From: a virus | Lineage: Duplodnaviria > Caudoviricetes | Virus record (IMG/VR): IMGVR_UViG_3300004213_000422 | Coordinates: 7,043-71,042 of that record | Reading direction: 5' to 3' (one strand) | DNA length: 64,000 nucleotides | Shown here: positions 12,758-53,643 of the stretch, one piece after another | Numbering within the stretch: the stretch's first letter is position 1 | How the letters are laid out: every line of letters begins with the position of its first letter | Notes under the pieces: model-generated | The model's database searches: none | Told to the model about the DNA's origin: nothing | What the model saw: only the letters and a program-made list of their open reading frames with translations | Translations under genes and position numbers: made by a program

Positions 12758-12758
12758 T

Positions 12759-13399: not shown

Positions 13400-13451
13400 A
13401 CCGCAGTCCATCATCAATGCAGCGCATCGTGCGCACATAAGGAGATAGCCG

Positions 13452-15013: not shown

Positions 15014-15297
15014 ACACGATCCCGGAAGAGGATCGTCCGGAGAAGCCTGCCGTTCTGGTGGAATATGGCTGGTTGTGGAGGGCCTGGGTCAGGCTCTCCC
15101 GCGACCGGCCGCGCCACGGCGGCGGCTTCTCGGCGCCCGTTCCGGGATATATACCCTGGACAACCATCATCGCTTGGGCCGAAAAGCACAGGCTGGACGA
15201 CGACGAAACAACCTTCCTTGATGAGGTACTGAACAGCCTATCTGACTTCGACCTGAAATGGACGATTGATAGGCAGAAGGAGAAGCCAGAGAAGTGA
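14953..15297 (+). CDS. Frameshifted extension of tail chaperone (gpGT-like)
   Basis: -1 frame reads GKLTTVLRYHLEWAQH...EYGWLWRAW, in frame with track ORF 15058-15297. Confidence 0.8.
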   Translation, partial: GKLTTVLRYHLEWAQHADFLNTIPEEDRPEKPAVLVEYGWLWRAWVRLSRDRPRHGGGFSAPVPGYIPWTTIIAWAEKHRLDDDETTFLDEVLNSLSDFDLKWTIDRQKEKPEK

Positions 15298-15983: not shown

Positions 15984-15991
15984 GTCATCGC

Positions 15992-26153: not shown

Positions 26154-26154
26154 C

Positions 26155-27258
26155 ATGATCCGGAACCGCGTTGAGGAAGTGCTGAACAATCCCGGCTCCG
26201 ACTTGTCGGTGCTGCTGGGCGGCGCGTCCGGCGCCGGTATGCGCACCTTCTCGCAGGCCTTCGGCGGCGAAGTGGACTCCTTCTACTTCATCGAGTCCGG
26301 CGCAATGTGGGAAGCGGGCATCGGCACCGTCACGGTAGGGCCGCCAGCGAAGTACAACCGCAACACCGTGCTGGACAACAGCACCGGAAGCAATTCCAGG
26401 CTGAACTTCACGGGCGCATCGCGCATCTACAATTACATCCCCGCCTCGCACGCAGCGTACAAGCAGCAGCTTGATGCCGAGATCGAGGCGCGCAAGGCGG
26501 CGATCACCGAGACGAAGGAACTCATCAAGGGGGTGGCTGAAGGCCGCATCACCTTCGATGAGACGATCTCGGGATACCTGAGCAATGAAACGAAGCTGAG
26601 GGAGCAGCAAGATGCCCTCCTGCTTGCCTGGGCCAATTCCATTGACGCCACCAGGGCGAGCGAGGATGCGATCCTCAGCAAGGCGATTATAAAGGCAAAC
26701 AACGACCGCGTTGACGCAGACACGTTCAATCGCAAGCTGCAAGTCGATGACGATGCCTACTACAGGCAGATTCAGATCAATGACGACAATGCGCTGGCCT
26801 CCACCCTCCGACAGGAAATGAGCCAGCAGCCCGTGAGCCGCATTCTTGGCGCTTCAGGCTTCTGGGCGAATAATGGTGGCCGCTACGATCCGATCTGGGA
26901 GACCGAGTTCTTCAGGGTGGCGCTTCCGGGGGCTGCTGGGTTCCCTGCCGTTCGTGTGTTCTTGATCATGAGGATGACGGCGCGACACATCGGGCCTGAC
27001 GTTGGCGATCAGGCGATGGTCACGCGAGCACGCCTCTTCGGTCCAGACAGCCGCGCCATCGGGACTTCGGTGCCGCTGTTCAGCGCGTGGGCAGGGTACG
27101 GGCAGTACGGCACCATCACGGAAATGATCCGGTTTGAGCAGACCGGCATTCCGCCCGGCTCATTCGTGCAGTTCACGGCGGAGCGGTCTTGGAAAGAGGG
27201 TGGGCCCGGAATGCAGGTCGTGGACTACCACGCAGACGGCTTCGTGGTCATAGGATAG
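26155..27258 (+). CDS. Minor tail / fibre-base protein
   Basis: WEAGIGTV...RNTVLDNSTG N-terminus followed by coiled coil. Confidence 0.55.
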   Translation: MIRNRVEEVLNNPGSDLSVLLGGASGAGMRTFSQAFGGEVDSFYFIESGAMWEAGIGTVTVGPPAKYNRNTVLDNSTGSNSRLNFTGASRIYNYIPASHAAYKQQLDAEIEARKAAITETKELIKGVAEGRITFDETISGYLSNETKLREQQDALLLAWANSIDATRASEDAILSKAIIKANNDRVDADTFNRKLQVDDDAYYRQIQINDDNALASTLRQEMSQQPVSRILGASGFWANNGGRYDPIWETEFFRVALPGAAGFPAVRVFLIMRMTARHIGPDVGDQAMVTRARLFGPDSRAIGTSVPLFSAWAGYGQYGTITEMIRFEQTGIPPGSFVQFTAERSWKEGGPGMQVVDYHADGFVVIG

Positions 27259-27262
27259 GAAC

Positions 27263-27706
27263 ATGGCAAGCGCAGAATGGGCCAACGCTGAAAAGACCTT
27301 CGTCCTGTACTTCGATGATGGTGGAACGCGGTATGTCGTCCTCCCGGATGACGTGCGCCTGAACGGGCTTGTGCTGGAAGATATGCGCATAACGGACGCA
27401 ACGATTGTCCCAAGGTCGGTGACGCGCTTCCAGGCGCTCAGCGTCATGCTGCAAACTATCCGCTCCAGCGGTCGCAGCATGTATAGTGAGGCACTGGAAA
27501 TGCTCACGGGTGCTGTGGCACAAGTCTCATCGTTGCCTGAGAGTGACCCCGCGAGGCGCGCGGCGGACCTCAACCTTCTGGCGTTCACGGCGGCCGACAC
27601 GTTTGAGCGCTCCAGCGCGCTGATCAGCAGCATCGGAGCCGCGCTGGACTTGGACGACGGCCAAATTGACCGTCTTTTCATACTCGCCGCTTCGGTTGCG
27701 CGGTAG
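27263..27706 (+). CDS. Tail fibre assembly-like protein
   Basis: SVTRFQAL...FERSSALI...GAALDL..QIDRLF pattern. Confidence 0.55.
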   Translation: MASAEWANAEKTFVLYFDDGGTRYVVLPDDVRLNGLVLEDMRITDATIVPRSVTRFQALSVMLQTIRSSGRSMYSEALEMLTGAVAQVSSLPESDPARRAADLNLLAFTAADTFERSSALISSIGAALDLDDGQIDRLFILAASVAR

Positions 27707-27715
27707 GAGGACGAC

Positions 27716-27898
27716 ATGACGGTATCGAACGCAGACCTGCTGAAGGCGCTAGAGGCGCACTCTGCTGCGGTTCAGGCGGAAATTCGCTCCGGCTTCGACC
27801 GCCTTGTCGGGGCGGTGGACAAGCTCTCGGAGGCGACGAAGAACAGCATCCTCATGGAAGATGGGTCTGGCATCGCCGCCCGTCGAAAGGAAGGTTGA
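27716..27898 (+). CDS. Small hypothetical protein
   Basis: GGAGG RBS. Confidence 0.5.
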   Translation: MTVSNADLLKALEAHSAAVQAEIRSGFDRLVGAVDKLSEATKNSILMEDGSGIAARRKEG

Positions 27899-27902
27899 GC
27901 AT

Positions 27903-28964
27903 ATGGCCAACATCAAGATCAGCGCTCTGCCTGCCGCGACGGACGCGACTGGTGTGGAGTTGCTGGGCATTCAGAACGGTGCCAACAAGCGCGTTCCAGC
28001 CGACCTCATCAAGGGGTCTGGGGCCGCAGTATCCTTCTCGAACGCCAATCCCAGCGCGCCTGGAACGCCAAACCCCGGCTCCTCGCAGCAGGTCGCGCGC
28101 GCGGACCACGTTCACCCGCCGGACGACACGAAGCTGGCGGTGACGGGCACGAAGACGGTGGGCCGCATCCCTACCGTCGAGAACGACATGAGCGTGGTCT
28201 GGAAGGACCCGCCGGCCGGCGGCGGTGCGGGAGGGGCCGGGCTCGCCGTGACCAAGCCCCTCATGAACGGCGTGGCTGCGGTCGGTGACGCAACCACCGC
28301 AGCGCGCGCGGATCACGTCCACGACACCGACACCAGCCGCATGGCGAACCCGACCGGCACGAAGGCTGCCGGGAAGGTGCCGCTGGTCACGGCGGACGGC
28401 AGCACAGTGTCCTGGGCGTCCCCGCCGACCGATACCAGCCGCATGGCCAACCCGACCGGCACCATGGGGCCCGGCAAGGTCCCCACCGTCAGCGGCGACG
28501 GCGCCACGGTCGCCTGGACCGACCCCCCCACGGGGAGCGCCCTCACGGTCGGCGGCAACCGCCTCATCGGCTCCGACGCGCAGGGCAACATCGTCCCGCT
28601 GCGCGCCACCACCACCGTCATGCAGAGCTTCATCGGCACCCCGGTGGTCGGATCGAAGCTCGTCTTCACCGGCAACGCGCCCTGGCCCGGAACGGTAGAT
28701 CAGATCGCGGTATCGGCAGAAGGCGCTGGCAGCCCCACCGTGACGCTGAAGCTGGAGAAGGTTACCTCCGGCACAGGAACGGTCCTCGGGGGTATCAGTG
28801 CCCTCGCTGCTGCCGGCGGCGCACCGGACAACCCGAACAGGACCAATGTGAGCGGCGCCCGAGACTTCTCCGCAGGCGACGCCCTGCGAGCCACCGTGAT
28901 GGCCGTCTCCGGCACGATCACTGGCTTTTCCGTGGAACTGACGCTTAACCGCGTCGCAGGATAA
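27903..28964 (+). CDS. Tail fibre-like protein with internal repeats
   Basis: KISALPAAT N-terminus; ARADHVH twice; DTSRMANPTGT twice (102-bp period). Confidence 0.65.
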   Translation: MANIKISALPAATDATGVELLGIQNGANKRVPADLIKGSGAAVSFSNANPSAPGTPNPGSSQQVARADHVHPPDDTKLAVTGTKTVGRIPTVENDMSVVWKDPPAGGGAGGAGLAVTKPLMNGVAAVGDATTAARADHVHDTDTSRMANPTGTKAAGKVPLVTADGSTVSWASPPTDTSRMANPTGTMGPGKVPTVSGDGATVAWTDPPTGSALTVGGNRLIGSDAQGNIVPLRATTTVMQSFIGTPVVGSKLVFTGNAPWPGTVDQIAVSAEGAGSPTVTLKLEKVTSGTGTVLGGISALAAAGGAPDNPNRTNVSGARDFSAGDALRATVMAVSGTITGFSVELTLNRVAG

Positions 28965-28970
28965 TCGCGC

Positions 28971-31900
28971 ATGTCCGGCACGACCTACCCGCTTGGTGCT
29001 CGCACCGGCACGAAGCTGCTTATCGGCTCCACGAAGCTCCGCGAGGACTTCAATGGCGTCCCGCTCCTTACCGAAGGCGGCAAGGTGGCCGGCTTCACGG
29101 ATCAGGACGTCGGTCCGGTCACCGTCTTCCAGGCGAATGCCGCGCTTCGCCCCACCTTCATGCCTGCGCTCGCAAGCATGAATGGCCTGGACGCAGCCGA
29201 GTTCGATGGGACCACCGGCCAGTTCTTCGCCACTCAGGGCGGCATCATGGCGCTGGAAAGCGCCAACTTCATGATCGCCATGAGCACGCGCGTTCGGACG
29301 GACCCCGTGGCCGCGCATGGAAGTTTGGTTAGCTTCATGCCGGACGAGGCGGTGGCCGGGCAGGACTTCTACTATGATCTCGAACGGGGCGACGATGCGT
29401 GGTCCCTCAACGCGAGTTGGGATGCGGGCGTCACGGGCACGCCAGGGAAGGGCCTTTACGTGGGGCGCGCGCCCGCCGCAGCCGGTGGCGCGGACCGGCA
29501 CATGCCCGGCGTCTCTTACGCATTCTACGAGAAGGCTGTCGTCCTTCTGGTCGTAGAAAACGGCATCGCGCATGTCCGCTGCAACACGCGCGTCAGTCCC
29601 GACTTCGCTTGGCCCTTCGCCTTCAACAAGCCCGGCCGCCTGACTTTTGGTCGAGCGGTTCGCGCGAGCGACCTGAATTACGTTATCGGCGGCGGGAAGC
29701 CGAACGTCTTCAAGGGCCATCTGGAGGCGGTCTACATCAGCGCGGAGCCGAAGGACGAAGGGTACGTCGGCAATCGCCTGGGTTCGCGTCTGGGGCTCAA
29801 TCTCGGCCTGACAGAGCGCACCGTGGTGGCTCCGGGCGAGCTTCCAGACCCCGATCCGGAGCCTGATCCCGAGACCGATCCCGGCACGGGCACGGGGGGG
29901 ACCATTCCGGACCCCACGACCGGCAATACCGTGACCGTCACGGACGACGGCGGCCTGCCCACGCCGACATCAGGCGTTGGCGCCACGGCCGTGCCGAACT
30001 ACGACTGGCGCGCATGGGCCAAGCCCGTCCCGCCCGCGACGGCGGCTTCAGGCATCCTCATCGCCCCCCGCATGCCCGCCCTGGCGACCACGGCGGAGGT
30101 CGCGTCCTTCATCATCCAGAACGGCTCAGGTTCGGCCCTCTCCGGCCGCTGGGATAGCTGGGGGGAGGTCTTCCCGCCCGGTGTCATGAAGGCCACGCAG
30201 CACCTGAAGATCAGGCGTGCGGGCGTCGAGTACCCGGCGCAGCGGACGATCCTGAGCCGGCACAACGACGGCAGTGCCTTCCACGTCGAGATCGCCGCCC
30301 AGCTTCCCGATCTGGCCGTTGGCGTCAGCCAGCCCGCCAAGCTGGTCCTAATCGCGGCCGGACCAACGGGGGAGAACAAGACCTTCGCGGGGCTCGGGGA
30401 CAAGAACCTTTCCGTGGAGTTCACGGTCGAGGGGACTGTCTACAACAAGGCCGTCACGACCCTGTACTCCGAAGCCCTTGCCAACGGCACGCTGAAGGTC
30501 TTCCGGCAGGGCCCGTTCAAGACGCAGATTCGCGTTCCCGCCTTCACGCACAAGCGTGTCCGGGGCTATCTGGACCTCACGGTGTGGTTCGACAACCACA
30601 TCACCATGACATCGCATCTGCGCGCCGATCTTCAGCGCATCACCACCACGCTTGCGACGAACTGGGCGACCCGCATGGTCGTCAAGCGCGGCACCGTGAC
30701 GCTCTTTGATAGCGGCACGCTCACGCTGTTCCAGGGTCAGGCATTCCGGAAGACGATCTACACCGGGTGGTCTGACGACATGAACAAGATGAGCCAGCCG
30801 CCGACGCACAATCTTCAGCGCGACGTCGGCCGCTACCAGCAGATCGGCGTGCTCCCGGCTCAGCGCCTCTCGGAAGGCATGCGCACCGGGACCGGCAGCA
30901 TGGTCGAGGCCTGGAATGCCGTGTCGGCGCGGAGCGACTACATGCTCCCGCTCGCCGCCAATGGCGTATACCGATACCTGCCGGGGACCGGCGACCGCGC
31001 CGACATCGGCCTGATCCCGGCGTGGATGGGCGCCTGGGGCATGACCCAGGATGACCGTTTCCGGCGCTGGATGCTCGCCACGGCGGAGGCCAGCTTGGCG
31101 ATCCCCTGGAATCACTGGGACGCCGTTCTGGACAAGCCCCTCAGCATCGCGGACCACAACCGGCTGTGGCTGGATAGCCGTGGGCAGGGCGAGAACCCGG
31201 CGGGGATCGTCTTCGCGCCGAACGGAGACGCGCCCAGCGGCTCCGGCTGGACGCTGAACTTCGCGCACCATCCGTCCCTGGCTTTCCTGCCGTGGATCAC
31301 GACGGCTGATCCGATGTGGCAGGACCAGCTTTGCAATGAAGCGCATGTCGGTGCGGCCAGCACTTGGATCAACCGCCGGACGTATATGGGCGGGCAGACC
31401 AAGGCTTGGTCTCTCGTGACCAACGAGGAGTCCCGTGGCGCAGCCTGGATTCTTCGTGGCGTCGTCCTGGCGGCGAAAGCCCTTCAGGACAACCATCCCG
31501 ACAAGCAGTTCTTCGTCAACCTTCAGGAGTTCAACTTCAACGCTTGGCTGAAGAAGGCGCCGCAGTGGCAGGCGGTTCAGGGTGAGCTTTATGGCTGGTT
31601 CGCTGAGACCAGCGGCTGGAACCAGTCCACCGAACTGAAGATGTGGATGCAGGAGAAGTGCATGAACGTGCTTGCCCAGGCAGGCAAGTTCGGCTCTCAG
31701 CTTGCGCTTCGCGTCTTCAACTGGGCGACGAATATCTACGTCAACGTCGATACATCGCCCTCCACGGTGGAGCTATTCCGGCACTACACTTGGTACATCG
31801 ACCCGACCGTCGATACGATCTTGGAGTCTGGCAAGCAGCCCACTGTCACCAAGTGGTCGCAGCTTCCCAGCAAGGTCGCGGCGGACGTGTCTGGCAACTA

Positions 31901-34721
31901 CGGGCTCCTCGCCAAGGCGGTCTTCGCGGACATCAGCATTCTCGGCAAGGATGCGACCATCCGCAACAAGGCGACGAAGCACTACAACGACCTAACCCAG
32001 TGGGTTCCGATTGGCGCGGTCGATTCCGACGCCAAGGACTGGTGGGGCCCGCTGACGGCCGGCTCCCAGCCGACCCTCACCTACGAGGACGTCGGTGATA
32101 CCGAGACCCCCGATCCGGACCCGGAGCCTGATCCGGACGCAGAGCCCGATCCGGTCGATCCTGATCCGGAGGAGCCGACGACCCCGGAGCCGGAGGACCC
32201 TGCCACCCAGGTCTTCCTGTCTCTCGGCGGCAAGGCGCTCCTCATTCGTGACGGCGGGATCGTCGTGAACTCGGGCGTGACGGAGGGGATCACGCTGACG
32301 CGCCCCTCTATCTCTCCCAGCACGCCGACGTTCAGGGCCGGCACGCCGGGGCAGGTCATTGGGACGTTCAACCAGCCGGCCGCGAGCGACACCACCAAGA
32401 ACGCGTCCATCGTCCGCACCATCACGGTGCTGGGTGATCGCTTCGCGCTCAGTTCCAGCAAGACGCAGCTTCAGGAGGGAGCCACCGCGCCGACCCCCGG
32501 CACGCGCTACAGCCTGACGGTGACGGACACCCTGGAGGGGGCCATCAATTCCCCGCAGAGCCTGACCTTTGACGTGATCGCGGAGAGCGCGGAGGTCATC
32601 GTGACCCCCACCGATCCGGACGATCCCGACGCTGATCCGGACCCGGTCGTGATCGTCCCGACTGGCTCCTTTAGCTCACCCCTCCGCCTCACCGGCACGG
32701 GTGCGCCGGCCGGCTCGGTCATCACCATCGGCCACCCGTTCCAGCGCGGTCACCTGTCACCCGGCGGCGCTCTATGCTTCCGGCGCAGCAACGGCACGAA
32801 GATCGCCACCGCGTGGGAGAACAAGAGCGTCCTCTGGGACGATGGGACGGTGCGCTTCGCCGTCGTCCACATCGCGGACCCTGGCCTGACCAACGGTCAG
32901 GTCGAGGATGGATACCTCGTCCCCGAGGCGCCTCCGTCCATGGGGTCTACCGTCAACCTCGCCAGTTCTCTGTCCGGCCAGACCGTGCAGGTCGAGATCA
33001 AGAATGGCAGCAACGTCTACGTCATGGACGTCGTGGCCAGCCTTGGGCAGAGCCGTTGGTGGCAGACGCCGCTGTCCAGCAGCGCCCGCGTGGAGGCGGA
33101 TGTTCCGCGCGCTGCGGTCGGCGGTCTGACGGACGCTCGCCTCATCGTTGATGTCACCTACTCGTCTGACGGCATCATCGACTGCGACGCGAACCTCTGG
33201 AACAGGAATGCTTTCGAGGCGAACCAGGGTCTTGCCACCTTCGACATGCGTATCATCGGCGCTGGCGGCACGAAGAAGTCCCAGTCGGGCATCAACGTGT
33301 ACCTCTACTGCCAGTACAGCATGCGTGCGCGCTGGAAGAAGGCTGACGGCGCGGCTGCCCCAGCCCTTCCGGCGGTGCGGCACAACACGAAGTACATGAG
33401 CGAGACGGGATGGGTCGCGAACTATGACCAAGGCCTGACCTACAATGCGTCCCTGATCACCGACCTCCAAAGCCAGATGGCTTCGGCCGGGTGGAACGAT
33501 CCGCGTTCTTCGCGCGGCATCGGCACGAGCATGGGCGAGACGGGCGGTCGCGGCGACATTGGCGAAAACACGCACCCCAACGCGCTCTGGCTTGCGACGG
33601 GGCACCCTGTCGCCGCGAAGTACGCGATGGATCAGTCCGACGCCGCCGGGCAAATCCCCTGGCATCCGTGGAATCGGAAGTACGGTCGGTGGATCAATCC
33701 AATTGACCAGCCGTACAACCGCGCCTCTGCCGATCACGATTCGAGCTACCGGCGCTCAGGCGCGGAGAAGAATCCGTGGAGTATGGACGCGGGCCATATG
33801 CCACAGAACAACTTCGTTCCGTACCTCCTGACTGCCCGTCGCGTCTGCCTTGACCGGCTGATGGGGCAGGCTGCCTGGACTATCATGGAGAAGGCGCCGG
33901 CAGGGTTTGAGCGGGGTGTTCCAAGCGCCACCGACGCCGATACCGATGCCGGCAGGCAGGCGCGCAAGGACAGCATCCTTGCCAATGCGGCTGGCGTTGA
34001 CTTCACCTATGGCGTGCAGGTCCGCAGCGGAGCCTGGACGTGGCGCAGCCTGATCGACGCGAGCATTGCGCCCGTGTCCGAGACACCGCACGGCGACTAC
34101 TTCCGCCGCTGTGTGGAAGCTGTGATGAACAGGTGGACGCGCGCCAAGGCTGCGCTAAAGACCCAGCAAGGGGAGCTTTACGGGTTCCCGCACGGGTGGG
34201 TCTACGGCAACCCCTGCAATGGCTGGGGCGCGTCCTGGCAGATGGACATGACGGCCTCGCAGATCGTGCGCGGCGCGTATCTCGGCTACTCCAACCACCG
34301 GGAGTGGCTGCCGCACGCGGACAACTGGTTCTCGGGCCGTTTCACGAACAACTCCAAGGGCTTCAACCCGGCGGACGGCGTCCAGTACAACCTGCGATTC
34401 TCCTCTGTCTGCCCGGTGGGTTACAACATCGAGTACACGAAGACCTGGGCGGCCCTTCAGGCGGCCACCGGGAGCGGCACCTACGGCGCGAACTTCTCCA
34501 AGGTCACCAGCATCGGCAATGACTATGTCATGCGCGCCGTTGCGGTGAACGAGCAGTGGATCGACGTTCTGGAGAAGTTCGGATACAGCAGCACGCGGGC
34601 GAAAGACGCGCAGACCTTCCTGGCAGGCGTTCCCAAGGCGATGACCTTCACGGACCTCGCTTCCTACCAGCGGACTCCGCAAATCAGCATCATCCGTCGC
34701 GGCAAGACTCGTCAGCCATAA
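28971..34721 (+). CDS. Giant tail/receptor-binding protein: LamG-like N-terminus plus two related PcRGLX/YetA-like modules
   Basis: GEVFPPG...RHNDGS and GHPFQRG...LWDDGT paired with TGDRADIG and TGGRGDIG; Pro/Asp/Glu linkers. Confidence 0.65.
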   Translation: MSGTTYPLGARTGTKLLIGSTKLREDFNGVPLLTEGGKVAGFTDQDVGPVTVFQANAALRPTFMPALASMNGLDAAEFDGTTGQFFATQGGIMALESANFMIAMSTRVRTDPVAAHGSLVSFMPDEAVAGQDFYYDLERGDDAWSLNASWDAGVTGTPGKGLYVGRAPAAAGGADRHMPGVSYAFYEKAVVLLVVENGIAHVRCNTRVSPDFAWPFAFNKPGRLTFGRAVRASDLNYVIGGGKPNVFKGHLEAVYISAEPKDEGYVGNRLGSRLGLNLGLTERTVVAPGELPDPDPEPDPETDPGTGTGGTIPDPTTGNTVTVTDDGGLPTPTSGVGATAVPNYDWRAWAKPVPPATAASGILIAPRMPALATTAEVASFIIQNGSGSALSGRWDSWGEVFPPGVMKATQHLKIRRAGVEYPAQRTILSRHNDGSAFHVEIAAQLPDLAVGVSQPAKLVLIAAGPTGENKTFAGLGDKNLSVEFTVEGTVYNKAVTTLYSEALANGTLKVFRQGPFKTQIRVPAFTHKRVRGYLDLTVWFDNHITMTSHLRADLQRITTTLATNWATRMVVKRGTVTLFDSGTLTLFQGQAFRKTIYTGWSDDMNKMSQPPTHNLQRDVGRYQQIGVLPAQRLSEGMRTGTGSMVEAWNAVSARSDYMLPLAANGVYRYLPGTGDRADIGLIPAWMGAWGMTQDDRFRRWMLATAEASLAIPWNHWDAVLDKPLSIADHNRLWLDSRGQGENPAGIVFAPNGDAPSGSGWTLNFAHHPSLAFLPWITTADPMWQDQLCNEAHVGAASTWINRRTYMGGQTKAWSLVTNEESRGAAWILRGVVLAAKALQDNHPDKQFFVNLQEFNFNAWLKKAPQWQAVQGELYGWFAETSGWNQSTELKMWMQEKCMNVLAQAGKFGSQLALRVFNWATNIYVNVDTSPSTVELFRHYTWYIDPTVDTILESGKQPTVTKWSQLPSKVAADVSGNYGLLAKAVFADISILGKDATIRNKATKHYNDLTQWVPIGAVDSDAKDWWGPLTAGSQPTLTYEDVGDTETPDPDPEPDPDAEPDPVDPDPEEPTTPEPEDPATQVFLSLGGKALLIRDGGIVVNSGVTEGITLTRPSISPSTPTFRAGTPGQVIGTFNQPAASDTTKNASIVRTITVLGDRFALSSSKTQLQEGATAPTPGTRYSLTVTDTLEGAINSPQSLTFDVIAESAEVIVTPTDPDDPDADPDPVVIVPTGSFSSPLRLTGTGAPAGSVITIGHPFQRGHLSPGGALCFRRSNGTKIATAWENKSVLWDDGTVRFAVVHIADPGLTNGQVEDGYLVPEAPPSMGSTVNLASSLSGQTVQVEIKNGSNVYVMDVVASLGQSRWWQTPLSSSARVEADVPRAAVGGLTDARLIVDVTYSSDGIIDCDANLWNRNAFEANQGLATFDMRIIGAGGTKKSQSGINVYLYCQYSMRARWKKADGAAAPALPAVRHNTKYMSETGWVANYDQGLTYNASLITDLQSQMASAGWNDPRSSRGIGTSMGETGGRGDIGENTHPNALWLATGHPVAAKYAMDQSDAAGQIPWHPWNRKYGRWINPIDQPYNRASADHDSSYRRSGAEKNPWSMDAGHMPQNNFVPYLLTARRVCLDRLMGQAAWTIMEKAPAGFERGVPSATDADTDAGRQARKDSILANAAGVDFTYGVQVRSGAWTWRSLIDASIAPVSETPHGDYFRRCVEAVMNRWTRAKAALKTQQGELYGFPHGWVYGNPCNGWGASWQMDMTASQIVRGAYLGYSNHREWLPHADNWFSGRFTNNSKGFNPADGVQYNLRFSSVCPVGYNIEYTKTWAALQAATGSGTYGANFSKVTSIGNDYVMRAVAVNEQWIDVLEKFGYSSTRAKDAQTFLAGVPKAMTFTDLASYQRTPQISIIRRGKTRQP

Positions 34722-34730
34722 GGAGGGCGC

Positions 34731-35462
34731 ATGTCGCTCACTCGCCTCAGCACGGGACTCAAGTTCACGGCCGCCGCGATGGCGCCCTACAACACGACTC
34801 CCAAATACGCACTCTTCGCGTTGAAGACGCCGTCGTTCGACAGCTACGCGGCGTTCTTCCAGATGCGTGGCACGGCGTCAGACGGGTATGATGGATACCA
34901 CAACCTGATCCTCCAGTACGGCATGTATGTCGTGCTGGAGGATCGTGGTCGGAATTACGGCGCTCCACTCGGCGTCTCGGTCAAGGCTGACCCAGGCTAC
35001 AACCTGAGCGCGGACGGCAAGGTCAATAAGTGGACGTGGTTCCTGATCCACATCGACAGCCTCAGTGCGCGCGGATTCCGTGTCGGCGGCTCCGTTGACT
35101 TCACGGTTGGCGGAACCTTCAATACGCCGGCAGCCATCAGCCGCATGGAGATTGGTTGGGGTCTGCCTGACAGCGCGAAGATCGCGCACGTCCACTGGTT
35201 CTCGGCGCTTAGCCTGACGCAGTACAACGCCATCGTGGCCGGCACTCTCGATCCGTCCACCGTGGAGACGTTGATTGACGGCTTCACCTTCAAGTCTGGT
35301 ATGTCGTCGGTGAAGGGTCTTCTGACGGCGACGCCGTACAATGCCACGACGCCGCCTCAGATCGACAGCAGTGACGATCCGGTTGTTGGCTCCTCGCCGG
35401 GAGGCGTGACGCCCCCGGCAGGCGACACCCTGATCCGCCGCAGCGGCGGCTTTGGGTGGTAG
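34731..35462 (+). CDS. Hypothetical beta-rich protein, probably virion-associated
   Basis: GGAGG RBS, last ORF of the tail block. Confidence 0.55.
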   Translation: MSLTRLSTGLKFTAAAMAPYNTTPKYALFALKTPSFDSYAAFFQMRGTASDGYDGYHNLILQYGMYVVLEDRGRNYGAPLGVSVKADPGYNLSADGKVNKWTWFLIHIDSLSARGFRVGGSVDFTVGGTFNTPAAISRMEIGWGLPDSAKIAHVHWFSALSLTQYNAIVAGTLDPSTVETLIDGFTFKSGMSSVKGLLTATPYNATTPPQIDSSDDPVVGSSPGGVTPPAGDTLIRRSGGFGW

Positions 35463-35469
35463 GCGGAGG

Positions 35470-35889
35470 ATGCCCAAGAAGATCGTCAACCTGTTCTCCA
35501 GATACTTTCTGGAGACAGTGTCGGGCTGGAGGATAATCCACTGGATGGCCACGGCAGTCGTGCTGTGGCTGTCCTTCCTGTTCTTCCTGCCCGGCGACAC
35601 ATTCAAGCTGAGCCCAGCCTACACCTACTTCGCGGACACGATGAGGGAGGAGCGCTGGGCCATCGCCTTCCTCATCGTCGGCGTCGTCGGGCTCATGTCG
35701 GGAGCATCAACCGATCTCCACCTGAAGATCATCGGCAGCATGCTCCTGAGCATCGCGCATGGCGTGTTCGCCACGCTGCTTTTTCTTGGCGCTCCCCTAT
35801 CGACCGGCTCCGGCACATACGCGTTCATCGCCATCGTAACGACGCTAAGGCTGTGGCGTCTTGTGAAGGTGAAGTCTCATGACGGATGA
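35470..35889 (+). CDS. Multi-TM membrane protein in lysis cassette
   Basis: About four hydrophobic segments; GGAGG directly before ATG 35470. Confidence 0.7.
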   Translation: MPKKIVNLFSRYFLETVSGWRIIHWMATAVVLWLSFLFFLPGDTFKLSPAYTYFADTMREERWAIAFLIVGVVGLMSGASTDLHLKIIGSMLLSIAHGVFATLLFLGAPLSTGSGTYAFIAIVTTLRLWRLVKVKSHDG

Positions 35890-36346
35890 AGCGAGGGACC
35901 TGTACCGAAATCCGACCACGATGACTGGCCGGCTGAAGAAGACCCTGCGTGGCATCTGGGCCAGGGAGCCCTGGTGGGCTGAGTTCTGGGCCGGCGTCAG
36001 CACGGTGCTCTGGGCTGTCTGGCCGTACCTCACGGGTGACGGTATAGACACAAGGCCTACATGGTTCGTCGCTTCCCTGCTGCTGGATGAGCACAGGTGG
36101 CAGTACGGAGGGATGATTCTTGGATGCGCGAAGATATTCATCCTCCTTCAGGACGCCCCCTACGTTCGCTGGCTGAGGCTTGTGTCCTGCTTCTTTGGTG
36201 CGTGGTTCTGGAGCTTCCTGGCGACGTCTCTGCTTATGGTGGACGCGGGCGCTCCCAGCGTCGCGCTCTACATCGTCCCAGCCCTGATCAACGTCTATTC
36301 CATGGTGCGCTTGCAGCCGCATGCGGTGCTTAGATGGGAGAACTAG
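35879..36346 (+). CDS. Multi-TM membrane protein, apparent paralog of preceding gene
   Basis: Shared GD.....P......M/L.E.RW.....G pattern. Confidence 0.65.
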   Translation: MTDEARDLYRNPTTMTGRLKKTLRGIWAREPWWAEFWAGVSTVLWAVWPYLTGDGIDTRPTWFVASLLLDEHRWQYGGMILGCAKIFILLQDAPYVRWLRLVSCFFGAWFWSFLATSLLMVDAGAPSVALYIVPALINVYSMVRLQPHAVLRWEN

Positions 36347-40657: not shown

Positions 40658-41191
40658 TCATCTTGCCGCCGGCCCCGTCGTCTGCATGGATCGCCACAGG
40701 GTAACCCGGACCACGTCCCTGCCCGTCTTCTCGTCCCGCCAGACCTGAGCATCGCGGATGGAGGCGGAGAGGCTTCCGGCATTCGCTTCGATTAGCCGCG
40801 ACCACTCCCGCGCCTCCGATCCGTCAATCGCCACTGCCCGCCCCAGCACCGTCACGTCATGCTGGGCCGCGCCGCGCCCGATCAGGAAGCCGGCGCCGGC
40901 CGCCGAGAGCACGAGGCTGATGCCTCCCACAACCATGACGGCCAGGAACTTGCGGGCCTGCATCCAGCGCAGTTCCCGCATTCCCTCCTCCACAGCCTTC
41001 CGCACCCCGGCCGCGACGCCCGCCGGCTGGCTCGTCCGGATTGCCGAGACCGCCAGGGGCAGCAGCCCCGCGAACTCCGCCTGGGCCTGGATGACCTGCC
41101 CGATGGGATCGTGCTGGATGCCGGCGACATGAGCGGTGCGGACCAGATCGGCCCGCACCGCCTCGCATCGCTCCGTCAGGAGATCACTCAC
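40658..41191 (-). CDS. Membrane-anchored hypothetical protein, plasmid mobilisation-region type
   Basis: One TM segment; GTGA overlap with upstream ATPase. Confidence 0.55.
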   Translation of the reverse strand: MSDLLTERCEAVRADLVRTAHVAGIQHDPIGQVIQAQAEFAGLLPLAVSAIRTSQPAGVAAGVRKAVEEGMRELRWMQARKFLAVMVVGGISLVLSAAGAGFLIGRGAAQHDVTVLGRAVAIDGSEAREWSRLIEANAGSLSASIRDAQVWRDEKTGRDVVRVTLWRSMQTTGPAAR

Positions 41192-42499: not shown

Positions 42500-42589
42500 G
42501 CTGAGCCGTGACTTGGACTGACCAATATCCGATAGCCACTAGCGCGTCCCACTATCACTGCGCTAGTGTCCCACACGTCGAGGCTCAGC
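42500..42589. repeat. Nested inverted repeats between divergent genes (candidate oriT/origin)
   Basis: GCTGAGCC 42500 / GGCTCAGC 42582; CACTAGCGC 42537 / GCGCTAGTG 42560; GTCCCAC twice. Confidence 0.5.
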
Positions 42590-42661: not shown

Positions 42662-42973
42662 ATGGAGGCGAGCCAGAAGTTGCTGGAGGCGCTTGCGGCG
42701 GCGGAAAATGCCGACACGAGGATCAGCGCCTATCTCGTGAGGAACAGGGAATATCTCTTGAAGGTCTGGCATCCCGATCCGGACAGGAAGCGTCCAGCAT
42801 CCGCAAGGATGTGGGCTAAGCGCGCTCAGGTGCTCTCAGAGCAGTTCCCTGGCCTGACCGCGAACGCCCTTCGCATGGCGTGGTACAGGGTGCGAGCAAC
42901 CGCGCCCAAGACCGAGGCGGCCCCTCCGCCCGTTGCGCGTGGCGGCTTTGGGCTTATGAGCCCCAGGGGGTAA
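42662..42973 (+). CDS. Small basic protein, possible relaxosome accessory (TraK-like)
   Basis: YLVRN..YL...W...A..L....LT....RMAWYRVR pattern; strong AAGGAGG RBS. Confidence 0.45.
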   Translation: MEASQKLLEALAAAENADTRISAYLVRNREYLLKVWHPDPDRKRPASARMWAKRAQVLSEQFPGLTANALRMAWYRVRATAPKTEAAPPPVARGGFGLMSPRG

Positions 42974-47745: not shown

Positions 47746-47782
47746 TCCTCCGGGGCGGGGTGTAGAGCCCCGCCTTCCTCCT

Positions 47783-47855
47783 GGCCCCTTAGCTCAGCGG
47801 ATAGAGCGCCCCAATCCTAGTGGGGAGGTCGAAGGTTCGAGTCCTTCAGGGGTCA
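47783..47855 (+). tRNA. tRNA-Arg(CCU), CCA not encoded
   Basis: GGCCCCT-TA-GCTCAGCGGATAGAGC-G-CCCCA-ATCCTAG-TGGGG...GAAGGTTCGAGTCCTTC-AGGGGTC-A. Confidence 0.88.
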
Positions 47856-47856
47856 T

Positions 47857-47930
47857 GACCCCGTCGTCTAACGGTAAGGCACTGGACTGCAAATCCGGGA
47901 ACGGGGGTTCAAGTCCCTCCGGGGTCTCCA
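47857..47930 (+). tRNA. tRNA-Cys(GCA)
   Basis: GACCCCG...CTGGA-CTGCAAA-TCCGG...GGGGGTTCAAGTCCCTC-CGGGGTC-TCCA. Confidence 0.93.
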
Positions 47931-49441: not shown

Positions 49442-49614
49442 ACCGTCGCCACCTTTGGCGTATCAGCCAGCCGGGCAGAAAGTCTCGGCGTTGGTACTTT
49501 CCGCACCTGTCGTGGGTGCTGGACAATAACCGCTTCGTCCGCTCTCTTTCGCGGCGTCGCACGCTTAGCCGGGAGGCCTGAATCCTAACTTATCGAACAG
49601 GCGCGGCTGGCGGC

Positions 49615-52600
49615 ATGATGGCCGCCACCGCAATGGCGAGCTACTACACGCAAGCCGGCGTGGTGACAGAGCAGGACCACCTTCGGCTTGCCGAGTATTA
49701 CGGTCGCGGGCACGGGGCTGAGGAGGCGATCTCCGCCGGCCTTGGTTGCGTTCCGACCGCGCGCGTGGACATGGACCCGGAGCTTGCGGCTGCACTCGGC
49801 CTGAAGGCGGGCGCGGCCATCAGCGAGAAAGAGGTCGCGAATATCCTGGCGGGACTGCGCGCGGACGGCACGGCCCTGCCGGTGGCGCACGCGTCGGCAC
49901 GGCGGATGGGCGGCGAGAACGGGACCGGCCACCGCATCGCCTATGCGGACCTCTGCCTGTCGGCCCCGAAGGGCGCGAGCATTGCCTATGCGTTCGCGGA
50001 GACCAACGCGGAGAAGCATTCGATCCTCCAGGCCATCCGCGACGCGGAGCGCGAGACCCTGACCTACATCGAAGCCCAGGTGGGGCGGGCGAACCGGGGC
50101 GGCGGGCGCAGTGGCGCTGAGGAGTCCGCCCGCATGGGGTGGATCGGCTTCACGCACTTCACGTCGCGACCGACCGTGGAACTGGTCAATGCCGCCGGGG
50201 ACACGGAGCTTCATCATGTGCCGGTCGCTGGCGACATGAACATCCACACCCACTACATCGTCCCGAACCTCGTGCGCACGGAAAGCGGGCGGCTGGTGGC
50301 GATGAACCGCGACCTCATGGACCACCGCATCAAGGAGTTCGGCGCGGTCTATCAGGCCTTCGTGTCACGCAACCTCCGGGCCATCGGGATCGACGTGGGC
50401 CTGGACGAGAAGAAGCGGCTGGCCTTCCTGCCGGCGATCCCGGAGCACGTCGTGAAGGCCTTCTCCCGCCGCTCCAGCGAGGGCGAGGAGGGGGCCCGCA
50501 TGTTCGCTGCATCGGAGGGGAAGGACTGGGACGCGCTGGACCCCGCCGCCCGCAGCGCCTTCATCAAGACCGCGACCCAGTCCGCCCGGCTGGCCAAGGG
50601 GACCGCCCCTGGCGACGGCGGCATGGCGGAGTGGCGGCGGCGCGCGGAGGCGCTGGGCTGGAAGCACAGGACCGCCATCACCCTGCCCCGCCACGGCCTG
50701 CCGGAGCCGTCCAGGGAGGCGCGAATGCAGGCCTCCTCCAGGGTGGCCCAGGGGGTGCTGGCGGAGGAGCTTGAGCAGCGCGCGGTGGTCTGGGGATCGG
50801 ACGCCCGGCACGCGGCGGCGGTCGGCCTGATCGCGGGTGGGATCGAGAGCGCGCGCGACATCGACGCCATCACCCGCGACATGCGGGAGAACGGCGTCCA
50901 CCACCACGGCCAGCAGACGACGGTGATCTGGCGCGAGTTCAAGCCGGGCAAGACGAAGCTGACCACAGCCCTGCACGAGAGCCAGGAGCGGGAGCTTATC
51001 GCCCTGGTGCGGGAGGCGCGGGAGGATCGGGCGGCGGACCTGCCCCAGGCTGCCCTGGAGGCGGCTGTGGGGCACCTGAGCGTCAAGGGAGGGGTGGACT
51101 TCACCAGCGCCCATGGGCAGGCCCAGAAGGCTTCTGCGGGCGTCCTGGCGGCCTCTGGGCGGTGGGGGCTGATGCTGGGCTCCGCTGGGGTGGGCAAGAC
51201 GTCCCTGGCGGCTCCCCTGGTGGCTGCGCGGCTGGATGCCGGGTGGGAGGTTTGGGGAGCGGCGCTCTCCTGGCGGCAGGCGAGGGCGCTGCGAGACACG
51301 GGGATCGAGGCCGGGAACCTCCGGGCCCTCCAGCCCTTCCTGCGTGCGGTGCAGGAGGGGCGCGTGGTCCTGGGCCCGAAGTCGGAGGTCTGGCTGGACG
51401 AGGTCTCCCAGGTCGGCACCCATCAGCTTCTCACCCTGGCGCGGCTCCAGAAGCAGCACGGCTTCAGCGTCCGCATCCTGGGCGACGACAAGCAGGCGCA
51501 GAGCATTGAAGCCGGGCCGGTGATCGAACTGATGCGCCGCGCCCTGGGCGAGGAGGCCATCCCCTCCATCCACACGACGATACGTCAAGCGACGGAAAGG
51601 GAGCGGGAGATCGCCGGCCTGTTCCGAGAGGGCAAGGCGGCGGAGGCCCTGAAGCTGAAGCTGGAGGACGGCACGGCCGCGATGGTGCCGGGCGGTTACG
51701 GCGAGGCGGTGGCGGCGGTGGCGCAGCGCTGGGCGGAGCGGACGGCGGCCATGGCCGGCATGTCGCGCTGGAGCATCACGGTCTCGGCGCCGACGAATGC
51801 GGCGGCCCACGACGTCTCCTCCGCCATCCGGGCGGCCAAGATCGCGCGGGGCGACATCCAGGCGCTGGGGGAGCGGCGGGTGGAGGCGGCGGACGCGCAG
51901 GGGGATGTGCGGACCCTCACCCTGGCGCCGGGCGACCGCGTGCGGCTGTTCGCCCGGACGCGGGGCGTGTTCGAGGGCGAGGATGGTCGGAAGCACTCCG
52001 CCGTGGTGGGCGACAACGGCAGCGTTCTGGAGGTCCGGCGGGCGGGCGGCGACGGGCTGGTCCTCCGGACGGACGCCGGCAAGCAGGCATTCGTCTCGTG
52101 GGACGCGCTCCGGCCACGCGAGGGCGGTGCGATCCGTCTGGCCTACGGCGACTGTCTGACCATCGACAGTGCCCAGGGCATCACCAGCGATGAGCACATC
52201 ATGGCCCTGCCCGCCGGCTCCAGGCAGGTCCAGGGCTTCAAGGCCTATGTGGCAGCCTCGCGCCACCGGGCGCACTCCTGGCTGATCACCAGCGAGGGGG
52301 CGGAGCTACGCGAGGTCGTGGAGCGGCGGCCGGCTGGAGTGGAGGAGGAACCCAGCAAGGCGGACCTCTGGGCCAACGTCTCGCGCAACCTGAGCAAGCA
52401 AGACCTGAAGGAGTCCGCCATCGGCTTCCTTGAGCAAGCGGCCAAGCAGGCGAACGCAGCGGCGCACACGCTCCAGGCTGCGGCCAGGGTGAAGGAGTCC
52501 TTTCGTGGCGTGACCAAGGCGGCGCGGCAAAGGGTTGTGGCGCGGCAGATCGCGCGGCACATTGAGCGCGTGGCGGACACATTGGGAGAGCGCGTGAGCC

Positions 52601-53643
52601 AGACAGCGGAGCGTCCCCGGATGACCAAGCGGTACGAGGTCAGCGAGAGCGAGGCCCAGGTCCAGTTCATGGATGCCGCGCGCGCCTTCGGTCTCCGGCC
52701 AAAGTCCATCATCATGGATGGCGAATACCATAGCGCTCCCCTGGAGGGTCAGAAGGGAAAGCAGTCCGGCGGCTACCGGGCGATGCTGGAGGGCATCCGC
52801 CCCACGATCATCCTCTTCAACCAGAAGACGAAAGAGAAGGCGACCTTCAGCGCGAACGGCGAGATCAAGGCTGTGTCGCCGGAGGAAGCTGCGGCGGCGC
52901 GCGCGAGGGCGGAAGAGAGCGCGCGGGCCGTGGAGCAGAAGCGTATCGAGAAGGAAGCCGATGGCGCCGCCCGCGCCGCAGCCTTGTGGCAGGGTGGCCG
53001 CCCGGCGGACCCGCAGCACCCGTATCTGGTGAAGAAGGCTGTGGAGCCGCACGGGCTGCGCCAGGACACCTACAAAGGGCAGGAGCGATTGCTGGTCCCG
53101 CTCCGCGACATCAGCGGCAAGCTATGGAACGTCCAGACCATCGAGCCTGACGGGACGAAGCTGTATCTGGCCGGCGCCCGGAAGCAGGGGGTCTATTACA
53201 CCCTGGGGGCACCGCATCGCATGGGCGAGCCGGTCGGCATCGCGGAGGGCTTCGCCACCGCCGCCACGATCCGGCAGGCCACCGGCATGACCGTCGTGGT
53301 GGCGCTGGACTCAGGCAACCTGCCCGTGGTCGCCAACGCCCTCCACAAGCGCGAGCCGGCCCGGCCGCTGGTGGTCTTCGCGGACAACGACGGCTCGCTT
53401 CCGCTCCGCACTCCGCCCCTGCCAAACGTGGGTCTGGAGAAGGCCCAGGAGGCGGCGCAGGATGTCGGCGGGAAGGTCGTGGCGCCTCCGTTCAATCCGG
53501 AGTGGAAGGACACGGACTGGAACGACCACCATGCCCGCCACGGCCTGGAGAAGACGAAGCTGGCGCTCCGGGCAGCTTGGCGCGAGAGTGAGGCCGCGCG
53601 ACCTGCGCAGAAGCCGGCACAGAAACCTGGGATGAGGATGTGA
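49615..53643 (+). CDS. MOBF (TrwC-type) relaxase fused to RecD-like helicase and C-terminal Toprim primase
   Basis: YY pairs; DLCLSAPKGAS; DMNIHTH; GSAGVGKT, LDEVSQ, GDDKQ, TIDSAQG; HPYL, LLVPLRD, IAEGFATA, FADND, TDWND. Confidence 0.92.
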   Translation: MMAATAMASYYTQAGVVTEQDHLRLAEYYGRGHGAEEAISAGLGCVPTARVDMDPELAAALGLKAGAAISEKEVANILAGLRADGTALPVAHASARRMGGENGTGHRIAYADLCLSAPKGASIAYAFAETNAEKHSILQAIRDAERETLTYIEAQVGRANRGGGRSGAEESARMGWIGFTHFTSRPTVELVNAAGDTELHHVPVAGDMNIHTHYIVPNLVRTESGRLVAMNRDLMDHRIKEFGAVYQAFVSRNLRAIGIDVGLDEKKRLAFLPAIPEHVVKAFSRRSSEGEEGARMFAASEGKDWDALDPAARSAFIKTATQSARLAKGTAPGDGGMAEWRRRAEALGWKHRTAITLPRHGLPEPSREARMQASSRVAQGVLAEELEQRAVVWGSDARHAAAVGLIAGGIESARDIDAITRDMRENGVHHHGQQTTVIWREFKPGKTKLTTALHESQERELIALVREAREDRAADLPQAALEAAVGHLSVKGGVDFTSAHGQAQKASAGVLAASGRWGLMLGSAGVGKTSLAAPLVAARLDAGWEVWGAALSWRQARALRDTGIEAGNLRALQPFLRAVQEGRVVLGPKSEVWLDEVSQVGTHQLLTLARLQKQHGFSVRILGDDKQAQSIEAGPVIELMRRALGEEAIPSIHTTIRQATEREREIAGLFREGKAAEALKLKLEDGTAAMVPGGYGEAVAAVAQRWAERTAAMAGMSRWSITVSAPTNAAAHDVSSAIRAAKIARGDIQALGERRVEAADAQGDVRTLTLAPGDRVRLFARTRGVFEGEDGRKHSAVVGDNGSVLEVRRAGGDGLVLRTDAGKQAFVSWDALRPREGGAIRLAYGDCLTIDSAQGITSDEHIMALPAGSRQVQGFKAYVAASRHRAHSWLITSEGAELREVVERRPAGVEEEPSKADLWANVSRNLSKQDLKESAIGFLEQAAKQANAAAHTLQAAARVKESFRGVTKAARQRVVARQIARHIERVADTLGERVSQTAERPRMTKRYEVSESEAQVQFMDAARAFGLRPKSIIMDGEYHSAPLEGQKGKQSGGYRAMLEGIRPTIILFNQKTKEKATFSANGEIKAVSPEEAAAARARAEESARAVEQKRIEKEADGAARAAALWQGGRPADPQHPYLVKKAVEPHGLRQDTYKGQERLLVPLRDISGKLWNVQTIEPDGTKLYLAGARKQGVYYTLGAPHRMGEPVGIAEGFATAATIRQATGMTVVVALDSGNLPVVANALHKREPARPLVVFADNDGSLPLRTPPLPNVGLEKAQEAAQDVGGKVVAPPFNPEWKDTDWNDHHARHGLEKTKLALRAAWRESEAARPAQKPAQKPGMRM

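Follow-up and report, generated by a model that had tools for sequence, protein, structure and literature searches.

Why would a tailed phage encode a conjugative relaxase? The question is raised by one long reading frame in the window, the whole 64,000-nucleotide stretch analysed here, which belongs to an IMG/VR virus record from a groundwater metagenome (effectively one sample). An earlier note made from the window alone had described the frame as an intact fusion of a TrwC relaxase, a RecD-like helicase and a Toprim primase in a phage-type setting, and had offered two explanations: a phage-plasmid mobilisable by helper elements, or a relaxase repurposed as a rolling-circle replication initiator.

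The description of the gene was borne out. ORF calling and translation give an uninterrupted frame of 1342 aa on the plus strand (49615–53643, from the annotated ATG), which matches the Pfam domains TrwC (2e-34; 120 bits against a cut-off of 25), AAA_30 (2e-26) and Toprim_3 (1e-10) and the NCBIfam MobF equivalog NF041492 (131.9 bits; cut-off 100), while its primase part is the sole region matched in a PHROGs search. In a 42-sequence family alignment all relaxase motifs are conserved (two Tyr pairs, SAPK and the His...Asp...HxH triad), as are the helicase Walker A and B and motifs III, V and VI and the Toprim Glu and DxD. Numbered from the ATC start proposed below, the tyrosine pairs are 21/22 and 39/40, and His192, Asp218, His222 and His224 are invariant in 25 sequences, with a lineage-wide insertion of ~20 residues between the first His and the Asp of the HUH site. 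Tyr39/40 is invariant across the family; Tyr21/22 is present in both phage-lineage copies (this element and its closest relative, L005) and in the hybrid record G008, and is replaced by His or Leu in many plasmid homologs. An AlphaFold (AF2) model of the relaxase domain (pLDDT 82) retrieved TrwC as the first-ranking structure in Foldseek (E 1e-14, TM 0.72), and the top structures are all TrwC, pKM101 TraI or F TraI (E 1e-14 to 1e-8). At the level of sequence and predicted fold, the ORF is confirmed as a MOBF relaxase fused to a RecD-like helicase and a Toprim primase (Table 1).

Table 1 Coordinates of the relaxase gene, its surroundings and the phage module, in window positions
Feature	Position	Strand	Basis or remark
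Siphovirus packaging, head and tail module	452..36346	+	TerS, TerL, portal, capsid, 2478-aa tape measure, tail proteins
177-aa gene, co-transcribed with P-loop gene	40658..41191	-	ORF; place parallels ~200-aa plasmid genes downstream of P-loop gene
P-loop accessory gene, 304 aa	41188..42102	-	Conjugation-module gene; homologs in plasmids and hybrids
Perfect 9-bp inverted repeat, divergent intergenic region	42537..42568	.	Operator or alternative oriT candidate
103-aa gene divergent from P-loop operon	42662..42973	+	ORF; place of small pre-relaxase accessory gene on plasmids
tRNA-Arg and tRNA-Cys	47782..47930	+	Within the 6.6 kb between accessory block and relaxase
Candidate oriT core, IR2-type hairpin	49503..49519	+	GCACC/GGTGC 5-bp stem, 7-nt loop; 62 nt upstream of relaxase start
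Shine-Dalgarno GGGAGG	49571..49576	+	Read from sequence; 5 nt before ATC
Relaxase-helicase-primase ORF	49582..53643	+	1353 aa counted from proposed ATC; annotated ATG at 49615
MOBF (TrwC-type) trans-esterase domain	49582..50661	+	Residues 1-360 from ATC; Pfam, NCBIfam, motifs, fold
RecD-like SF1B helicase domain (AAA_30)	51082..52431	+	Pfam; Walker A, Walker B, motifs III, V, VI intact
Toprim-type primase domain	52843..53607	+	phrog_2249 5e-65, Pfam Toprim_3, conserved Glu and DxD

Translation most likely begins at an ATC codon 33 nt 5′ of the annotated ATG. A complete relaxase N-terminus needs this start: the 11 added residues match the conserved N-terminus of the family and form beta-strand 1 in the AlphaFold model. 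In L005, GGAGGG likewise precedes an ATT start of the relaxase. An AUC start codon would probably keep relaxase translation low.

The wider context of the gene lies beyond the window. A metagenome contig of 120,393 bp contains the 71-kb IMG/VR record at 100% identity, the record making up 59% of it; a second contig of 120,468 bp is also present, and the CheckV completeness of 59% predicts 120.4 kb, equal to the whole contig. The note's observation that the window lacks a type IV secretion system (T4SS), a coupling protein and a replication initiator holds for the window and fails for the contig, which encodes all three. A VirB1–B11 T4SS with a VirD4-type coupling protein (T4CP) lies 38–51 kb upstream of the window (SLT/VirB1, VirB2, VirB3, VirB4, TrbL/VirB6, VirB8, CagX/VirB9, TrbI/VirB10, T2SSE/VirB11 and T4CP), and a lambda-O/DnaD-like replication initiator (phrog_270, 2e-36) lies ~25 kb upstream of the window, in a lambdoid early region. 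A DUF932 gene is also on the contig. The phage set includes TerS, TerL, portal, protease, major capsid protein, tape measure and tail genes along with five tRNAs, in keeping with the phage-type context described from the window. The conjugation genes are spread over three blocks, between which lie tRNAs and genes of phage type. Searches of the remaining genome found no integrase, tyrosine or serine recombinase, resolvase, ParA or plasmid Rep on the contig; the element yielded no recognisable endolysin, holin or other lysis gene, CI-type repressor or partition system, and Pfam and PHROGs revealed no DNA polymerase, DnaB-type helicase or further primase. Provided that the contig is assembled correctly, the relaxase, the T4CP, VirB4 and the other MPF-T genes share one replicon.

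We lean towards the reading that this ORF supplies the relaxase for conjugation by a complete MOBF/MPF-T system, on one replicon of at least 120 kb that also carries an apparently complete lambdoid siphovirus. From gene content, motif integrity, synteny and relatives we infer a candidate self-transmissible (conjugative) phage-plasmid, presumably circular and packaged as a whole, which, were its predicted activities real, would spread both as virions and by mating. More tentatively, the element may belong to a long-standing natural lineage of temperate tailed phages doubling as self-transmissible conjugative plasmids, with a ~120-kb replicon both packaged and transferred by the T4SS.

The closest relative, L005 (13.7 kb), encodes a relaxase 60% identical to that of the element (0.60–0.63 in the three domains, 0.50–0.57 in the linkers) with the same gene neighbourhood and interleaving, and shows neither virion genes nor T4SS. 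The nearest known plasmid homologs of the element are at most 45–54% identical. The same three-domain fusion, MobF plus Toprim, is the relaxase of the T4SS-bearing Acetobacteraceae plasmids pAC258-29 (Acetobacter pasteurianus, NC_019337) and pOT10-2 (Roseomonas sp. OT10, NZ_CP087721), at 39–45% identity over ~90% of the length, and both plasmids share with the element the P-loop gene, the stem of the candidate oriT hairpin and an MPF-T T4SS plus T4CP. In the plasmids the module is compact, with RepA, a recombinase and toxin-antitoxin genes as neighbours, whereas the element has three blocks and no plasmid backbone; the element further differs in its AUC start, its second Tyr pair and the lack of a small accessory gene between hairpin and relaxase. 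Conjugation genes are all that it has in common with these plasmids, to the exclusion of RepA, ParA and toxin-antitoxin, and the phage block sits exactly where the plasmids have their maintenance region. The fusion also occurs in a compact conjugation module on a 47-kb contig.

Two unrelated IMG/VR records resemble the element in combining head, portal and tail genes with a TrwC-helicase relaxase (37–41% identical), the P-loop gene, a T4CP and the candidate oriT motif: G005 (IMGVR_UViG_3300031472_000015, 107 kb), in which the relaxase is also fused to a primase and VirB4 is also present, and G008 (IMGVR_UViG_3300010396_000045, 94 kb). Unlike the element, both have a capsid of family phrog_264 and a compact conjugation module, and the tail of G005 is contractile. 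Such hybrids with other phage types suggest that the combination arose repeatedly. A VirB4 alignment scan of IMG/VR gave no match, nor did a single-sequence IMG/VR scan. Among 50,697 deposited phages, megablast with the gene and tblastn with the relaxase domain were both without a match; near-identical records may be masked in these collections.

The MOBF prototype, R388 TrwC (PDB 1OMH, 1QX0), has the same fold, HUH triad and two Tyr pairs and a likewise fused SF1B helicase, and the stem of the candidate oriT hairpin is identical to the R388 IR2 stem (PMC4176350). The element differs from R388 in ~19% relaxase identity, the ~20-residue insertion in the His motif, the fused primase, a loop of 7 nt rather than 4 and an unrelated single-stranded stretch beside the hairpin. 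A motif search of the 120 kb found two hairpins of this kind, of which only the one next to the relaxase lies in non-coding DNA; the expectation is 1.39 per 64 kb, and the chance of a hairpin in that 140-nt gap is ~0.003. The same stem adjoins the relaxase in the two plasmids and the two other hybrids. The family hairpin motif is kept in four relatives; the flank of the element's hairpin departs from it, and L005 has no hairpin upstream of its relaxase. A nucleotide comparison with the plasmids to locate oriT (blastn-short) gave no match, the hairpin having come from the motif search alone.

Homologs of the P-loop gene are found in pAC258-29 (2e-30), pOT10-2 (1e-28), G005 (7e-30) and G008 (3e-27), in each case as the gene divergent from the relaxase operon; the protein is without a match in Pfam, NCBIfam, PHROGs and PDB sequences. 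The neighbouring 177-aa gene shows no sequence match to its plasmid counterparts, and homology searches with the 103-aa gene found nothing, its parallel being positional only. The inverted repeat between the divergent operons is an alternative oriT candidate because it occupies the ancestral oriT position.

By analogy with TrwC and TraI, the N-terminal HUH domain would bind the hairpin upstream of its own gene, nick one strand a few nucleotides away and remain covalently attached to the 5′ end via a tyrosine. The fused 5′–3′ helicase would then unwind the DNA, and the element's VirD4 coupling protein would pass the protein–DNA complex to the VirB-type T4SS. Entering the recipient with the DNA, the fused Toprim primase could prime the complementary strand, and the second tyrosine pair could reclose the circle. 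Phage replication would be started by the separate O-like initiator.

The strongest competing explanation, which we judge unlikely while giving it real weight, is that two elements lie in tandem, with a prophage or prophage remnant in or beside a conjugative plasmid or ICE, so that the relaxase serves the plasmid or ICE only and the phage is possible cargo. Prophages on conjugative plasmids are known, and conjugative megaplasmids with prophages have been described (PMC12934698); among 60 PLSDB plasmids with a homolog of the element's capsid, 11 are typed as conjugative. The closest conjugation modules also have plain plasmid-like surroundings, relatives by TerL and by capsid are ordinary prophages in chromosomes, those with related terminases lacking a relaxase, and a plasmid replicon could be hidden among the many genes that have no assigned function. 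Against this, no att-like repeat and no gene for plasmid replication, partition, a toxin-antitoxin or a recombinase was found, the phage block takes exactly the position of the plasmid maintenance region, and the size expected by CheckV is that of the whole contig. The idea that the gene belongs to a discrete insertion with its own boundaries does not hold in its simple form, given three interleaved blocks in an arrangement kept in L005. In the best reading of this gene content, with no integrase, resolvase or ParA, the element would not be a nested prophage. TerL relatives in four MAGs were considered as kin of the element and rejected; they represent mosaic modules, because TerL, joined in one case by a ParB-methylase, is all that they have in common with it.

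An improbable alternative is the earlier note's second proposal, that the relaxase is the sole or an additional nick-unwind-prime initiator of rolling-circle phage replication. Nickase, helicase and primase are joined in one polypeptide, a hairpin adjoins the gene, and no other polymerase, helicase or primase of the kinds sought was recognised. Relaxase-driven replication is known for ICEs. The proposal's premise, that no standard initiator is present, falls with the lambda-O/DnaD-like initiator on the contig, and a complete T4SS and T4CP accompany the relaxase. The fusion is not a phage adaptation, because ordinary conjugative plasmids carry it, primase included.

Still less probable is a misjoining of phage DNA to plasmid DNA of the same community. 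The data are metagenomic, the first base of the 71-kb record is where both that IMG/VR record and a Logan unitig end, and one end of the contig is an Illumina adapter artefact. Both sides of that break, however, are already mixed: to its left the T4SS lies beside RecT, an exonuclease, a Cro-like gene and the O-like initiator, and to its right the virion genes accompany the relaxase, the hairpin and the P-loop gene. Two contigs of ~120.4 kb exist, no att-like or assembly-breaking repeats lie at the record edges, composition is uniform along the contig, and G005 and G008 show the same combination. Inspection of read support, which the earlier note had advised, gave an even depth of 65–78x across the relaxase region. 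Low-depth 'joints' in contigs were disregarded because of their 21–22-nt anchors and metagenome origin. No terminal overlap of the 120-kb contig was found, and a source-run unitig extends 3.2 kb past the end that has no adapter artefact. Exact-word searches for a second assembly or a joined end returned nothing in IMG/VR or JGI metagenomes, and fragments of the element turn up in a second study.

Least probable of all is helper-dependent mobilisation through a defective T4SS: VirB9 is encoded in pieces and VirB11 holds a ~370-aa LAGLIDADG insertion, but every T4SS ORF is open, VirB9 is split in the same way in the relative on the 47-kb contig, and the insertion looks like an intein that would splice out. 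The earlier note's phage-plasmid idea was broadly right; no helper need be assumed, because the 120-kb contig has its own T4SS and coupling protein.

The preferred reading, a conjugative phage-plasmid, has partial precedents. Phage-plasmids of the P1, N15 and SSU5 types are, like the element, temperate-looking tailed phages that lack an integrase and are presumably episomal; the element differs in its full T4SS, T4CP and relaxase and in having no recognised partition system. In E. coli p1002-1, described as a conjugative phage-plasmid that arose when a conjugative plasmid fused with a phage-plasmid (bioRxiv 10.1101/2025.03.14.643293), virion and conjugation genes likewise share one replicon, but it is a cointegrate of two recognisable parent plasmids, whereas the element retains no parent backbone and its modules are interleaved. 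According to a 2025 review, an element spreading both as virus particles and by conjugation had not yet been found. Infection by phage and conjugative transfer count as alternative strategies of transmission that differ in cost, host range and size limit, and an element with both routes would, if real, blur that division: mating could evade receptor-based phage resistance, and virions could evade contact dependence. Virus-or-plasmid classifiers would misfile such an element, of which IMG/VR retained only the viral-looking 59%. It offers as handles a defined relaxase, a candidate oriT, an unusual AUC start and three independent records.

Two minor observations concern a further gene and a possible relative. 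A PurZ reading of a PurA-like gene was not adopted, since the P-loop motif of the gene product retains its Asp. One ENA contig of 110,935 bp may carry both a 61% relative of the capsid and a 45% relative of the relaxase.

The earlier note had described an intact relaxase-helicase-primase ORF in a tailed phage, and this observation holds once its start is corrected. The frame is uninterrupted, Pfam recovers all three domains (see table), and the relaxase scores 131.9 bits against the curated NCBIfam MobF equivalog (cut-off 100 bits). In a 42-sequence alignment the relaxase motifs are complete (the invariant Tyr39/40, SAPK, His192, Asp218, His222 and His224), as are helicase Walker A and B, motifs III, V and VI, and the Toprim Glu and DxD of the primase. 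The phage lineage also has Tyr21/22, a second pair like that of TrwC, which most plasmid homologs lack. The best structural matches of the AlphaFold model are TrwC (E 1e-14), followed by the TraI proteins of pKM101 and F. Between the two phage-lineage copies (this one and that of L005, a 13.7-kb stretch and the closest relative), identity is 0.62, 0.63 and 0.60 in the three domains versus 0.50–0.57 in the linkers. Since the domains are equally similar, none of the three activities appears, from these comparisons, to have been given up. Among PHROGs, phrog_2249 matches the primase part (5e-65), while the first 1000 residues have no match in that database; the relaxase domain has no tblastn match among deposited phages.

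Features of the relaxase region, in window positions unless residues are given
Feature	Position	Strand	Remarks
Relaxase-helicase-primase ORF	49615-53643	+	uninterrupted; 1342 aa from annotated ATG
TrwC domain	residues 56-346 of annotated protein		Pfam, 2e-34
AAA_30 helicase domain	residues 502-686 of annotated protein		Pfam
Toprim_3 domain	residues 1207-1310 of annotated protein		Pfam
Perfect 9-bp inverted repeat	42537-42568		ancestral oriT position
tRNA-Tyr	38187-38271		flanks TROVE + vWA gene
tRNA-Thr	40390-40465		flanks TROVE + vWA gene

CheckV estimates the 71,042-bp IMG/VR record to be 59% complete, implying an element of 120.4 kb. An identical relaxase protein is encoded on an ENA metagenome contig of 120,393 bp, part of which is 100% identical to the record; another contig, of 120,468 bp, also exists. 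Sequence 5′ of the record on the 120,393-bp contig carries phage-type early genes, a divergent junction with a Cro-like HTH gene, and RecT together with a PD-(D/E)XK exonuclease. Approximately 25 kb upstream of window base 1 lies a replication initiator resembling O/DnaD (phrog_270, 2e-36). Further out, 38–51 kb upstream, are T4SS genes for SLT/VirB1, VirB2, VirB3, VirB4, VirB6, VirB8, VirB9 (encoded in pieces), VirB10 and VirB11, beside a VirD4-type T4CP and DUF932. From its sequence and context, the gene is best read as a functional relaxase belonging to a complete conjugation system within a lambdoid siphovirus, which makes this groundwater element a candidate conjugative phage-plasmid. The two readings offered in the earlier note both lose ground to genes outside the window: mobilisation by a helper element is less likely because the element has its own T4SS and T4CP on the same contig, and a role for the relaxase as replication initiator is less likely given the separate O/DnaD-like gene. 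The host is probably Acetobacteraceae-like, judging by homologs and a GC content of 65%.

Two further features lie outside the window. VirB11, the T4SS ATPase (L012:13283-15370, on the same contig), is 695 aa long (328 aa in its closest relative) and contains a LAGLIDADG_3 domain, an insertion that looks like an intein within the conjugation ATPase. Just upstream of the window (L001:4080-5384, genome coordinates), one gene joins a ParB N-terminal domain to an N6/N4 DNA methyltransferase. The element has no other ParB-like domain, and homologs occur in a MAG prophage and in the hybrid record G008 (IMGVR_UViG_3300010396_000045).

On whether this is one replicon or two, several lines of evidence favour one. 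GC and tetranucleotide content are uniform along the contig, and in the source run identical unitigs tile 20 kb around the relaxase at 65–78x with no step in depth; identical fragments occur at low depth in a second groundwater study. Searches that included Pfam found neither a ParA nor a recombinase of the tyrosine or serine type on the contig. When its 156 predicted proteins were compared with two related plasmids, pAC258-29 (Acetobacter pasteurianus, NC_019337) and pOT10-2 (Roseomonas sp. OT10, NZ_CP087721), only conjugation genes had homologs; the plasmids' RepA, recombinase, TrfB-like and toxin-antitoxin genes had none, and the phage block takes the place of the plasmids' maintenance region. 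Three blocks hold the conjugation genes (T4SS and T4CP; a P-loop accessory operon at 40.6–43.0 kb; hairpin and relaxase); the gaps between them measure 6.6 kb, with two tRNAs, and at least 17 kb, filled by other genes. L005 shares the gene order, comprising the upstream gene, the downstream small ORF, several more genes and an NMT1_3 gene that is 82–93% identical at the nucleotide level. More distant relatives (a 47-kb contig, G008, and G005, IMGVR_UViG_3300031472_000015) carry the T4CP immediately 3′ of the relaxase, in convergent orientation. On the 120-kb contig the two genes sit at opposite ends in the same relative orientation, which fits adjoining contig ends without proving adjacency. 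Both the L005 synteny and this orientation favour an arrangement of long standing over a recent fusion.

Against a single replicon, the 120-kb contig has no terminal overlap. One end consists of Illumina TruSeq adapter sequence (L012:19123-19167), showing that untrimmed reads went into the public assembly; beyond the other end, a source-run unitig extends 3.2 kb. The first base of the 71-kb record is a break point in two assemblies, with no repeat there. Even were that join wrong, phage and conjugation genes are mixed on either side of it.

On Acetobacteraceae plasmids, a protein with all three domains is annotated as the MobF relaxase (39–45% identity over ~90% of its length) and adjoins a T4CP and a VirB T4SS. 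The primase fusion is therefore a trait of plasmids and no phage invention. The VirB4 of the element falls in a small clade found only in metagenomes (54–64% identity); among known plasmids, no VirB4 exceeds 40% identity to it. An alignment-based scan of IMG/VR recovered six records with related relaxases. G005 (106,826 bp, CheckV 100%) encodes a compact module of the full fusion (41%), a P-loop gene, T4CP, VirB11 and VirB4, together with a major head protein (2e-57), portal (1e-97), tail sheath, tape measure and baseplate wedge; no integrase was found in it. G008 (93,589 bp, CheckV 87%) combines a TrwC-helicase relaxase, T4CP and P-loop gene with a major head protein (5e-77), head protease and tape measure. 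From this gene content, the combination of conjugation and phage genes recurs on different phage backbones. The 107-kb myovirus-type G005 (L044:6131-7363) additionally encodes an 881-aa primase/helicase and a transposase (phrog_506, 2e-74), and across the ends of its record the portal and capsid genes are adjacent. A 2021 survey used CONJscan to look for conjugation genes (PMC7969092), the E. coli plasmid p1002-1 has been described as a cointegrate "conjugative phage-plasmid" (bioRxiv 10.1101/2025.03.14.643293), and a 2026 preprint names such hybrids as one source of misclassification.

The N-terminus was inspected because the Pfam match opens at profile position 32. In many homologs the initiator is followed by a conserved nonapeptide (Leu-Thr-Tyr-Arg-Thr-Gly-Ala-Ala-Gly), which is missing from the annotated phage protein. 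The same peptide is encoded in frame 5′ of the annotated ATG, starting at an ATC (49582) immediately 3′ of a TGA stop, with GGGAGG 5 nt ahead. The L005 relaxase (60% identity) has this peptide from an ATT behind GGAGGG, with codon differences mostly at third positions, and the upstream-encoded residues form beta-strand 1 of the AlphaFold model (pLDDT 82, pTM 0.84). Based on the conserved peptide, Shine-Dalgarno motif, L005 counterpart and modelled strand, the start is placed at ATC 49582, giving 1353 aa. Both phage-lineage genes appear to start at AUC (window 49582) or AUU (L005:2674), while plasmid homologs use AUG or GUG. The conserved AUY suggests deliberately weak translation and may act as a translational throttle.

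In both plasmids, a conserved 9–11-nt flank followed by a hairpin with stem GCACC/GGTGC lies 5′ of a small gene and the relaxase; in G005 and G008 this flank and hairpin recur, placed between the P-loop gene and relaxase. This is the stem of R388 IR2, whose proximal arm is essential for TrwC, with nic 9 nt past the arm (PMC4176350). The hairpin type occurs twice in the 120-kb contig, inside a tail gene and at 49503–49519, within the 140-nt gap 5′ of the relaxase (chance ~0.003, from 1.39 expected per 64 kb). Because the flank has diverged there, the small accessory gene is absent, and L005 has no hairpin at the corresponding site, we rate this putative transfer origin as plausible, roughly as likely as not. 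The inverted repeat at the ancestral position would be an alternative candidate.

Among neighbouring genes, a PurA-like adenylosuccinate synthetase (58963–60201, minus strand) matches a PHROG family annotated PurZ, of the 2-aminoadenine pathway (2e-62), but keeps the Asp of the N-terminal P-loop motif. A Ro60-like TROVE + vWA protein is encoded at 38744–40261 (minus strand) between tRNA genes; an Rfam search of 37.5–55 kb returned tRNAs only. Between the relaxase and the PurA-like operon, consecutive genes at 54545–58049 encode envelope or secreted proteins, of which one weakly matches PEP-CTERM; parts of this stretch are conserved in L005.
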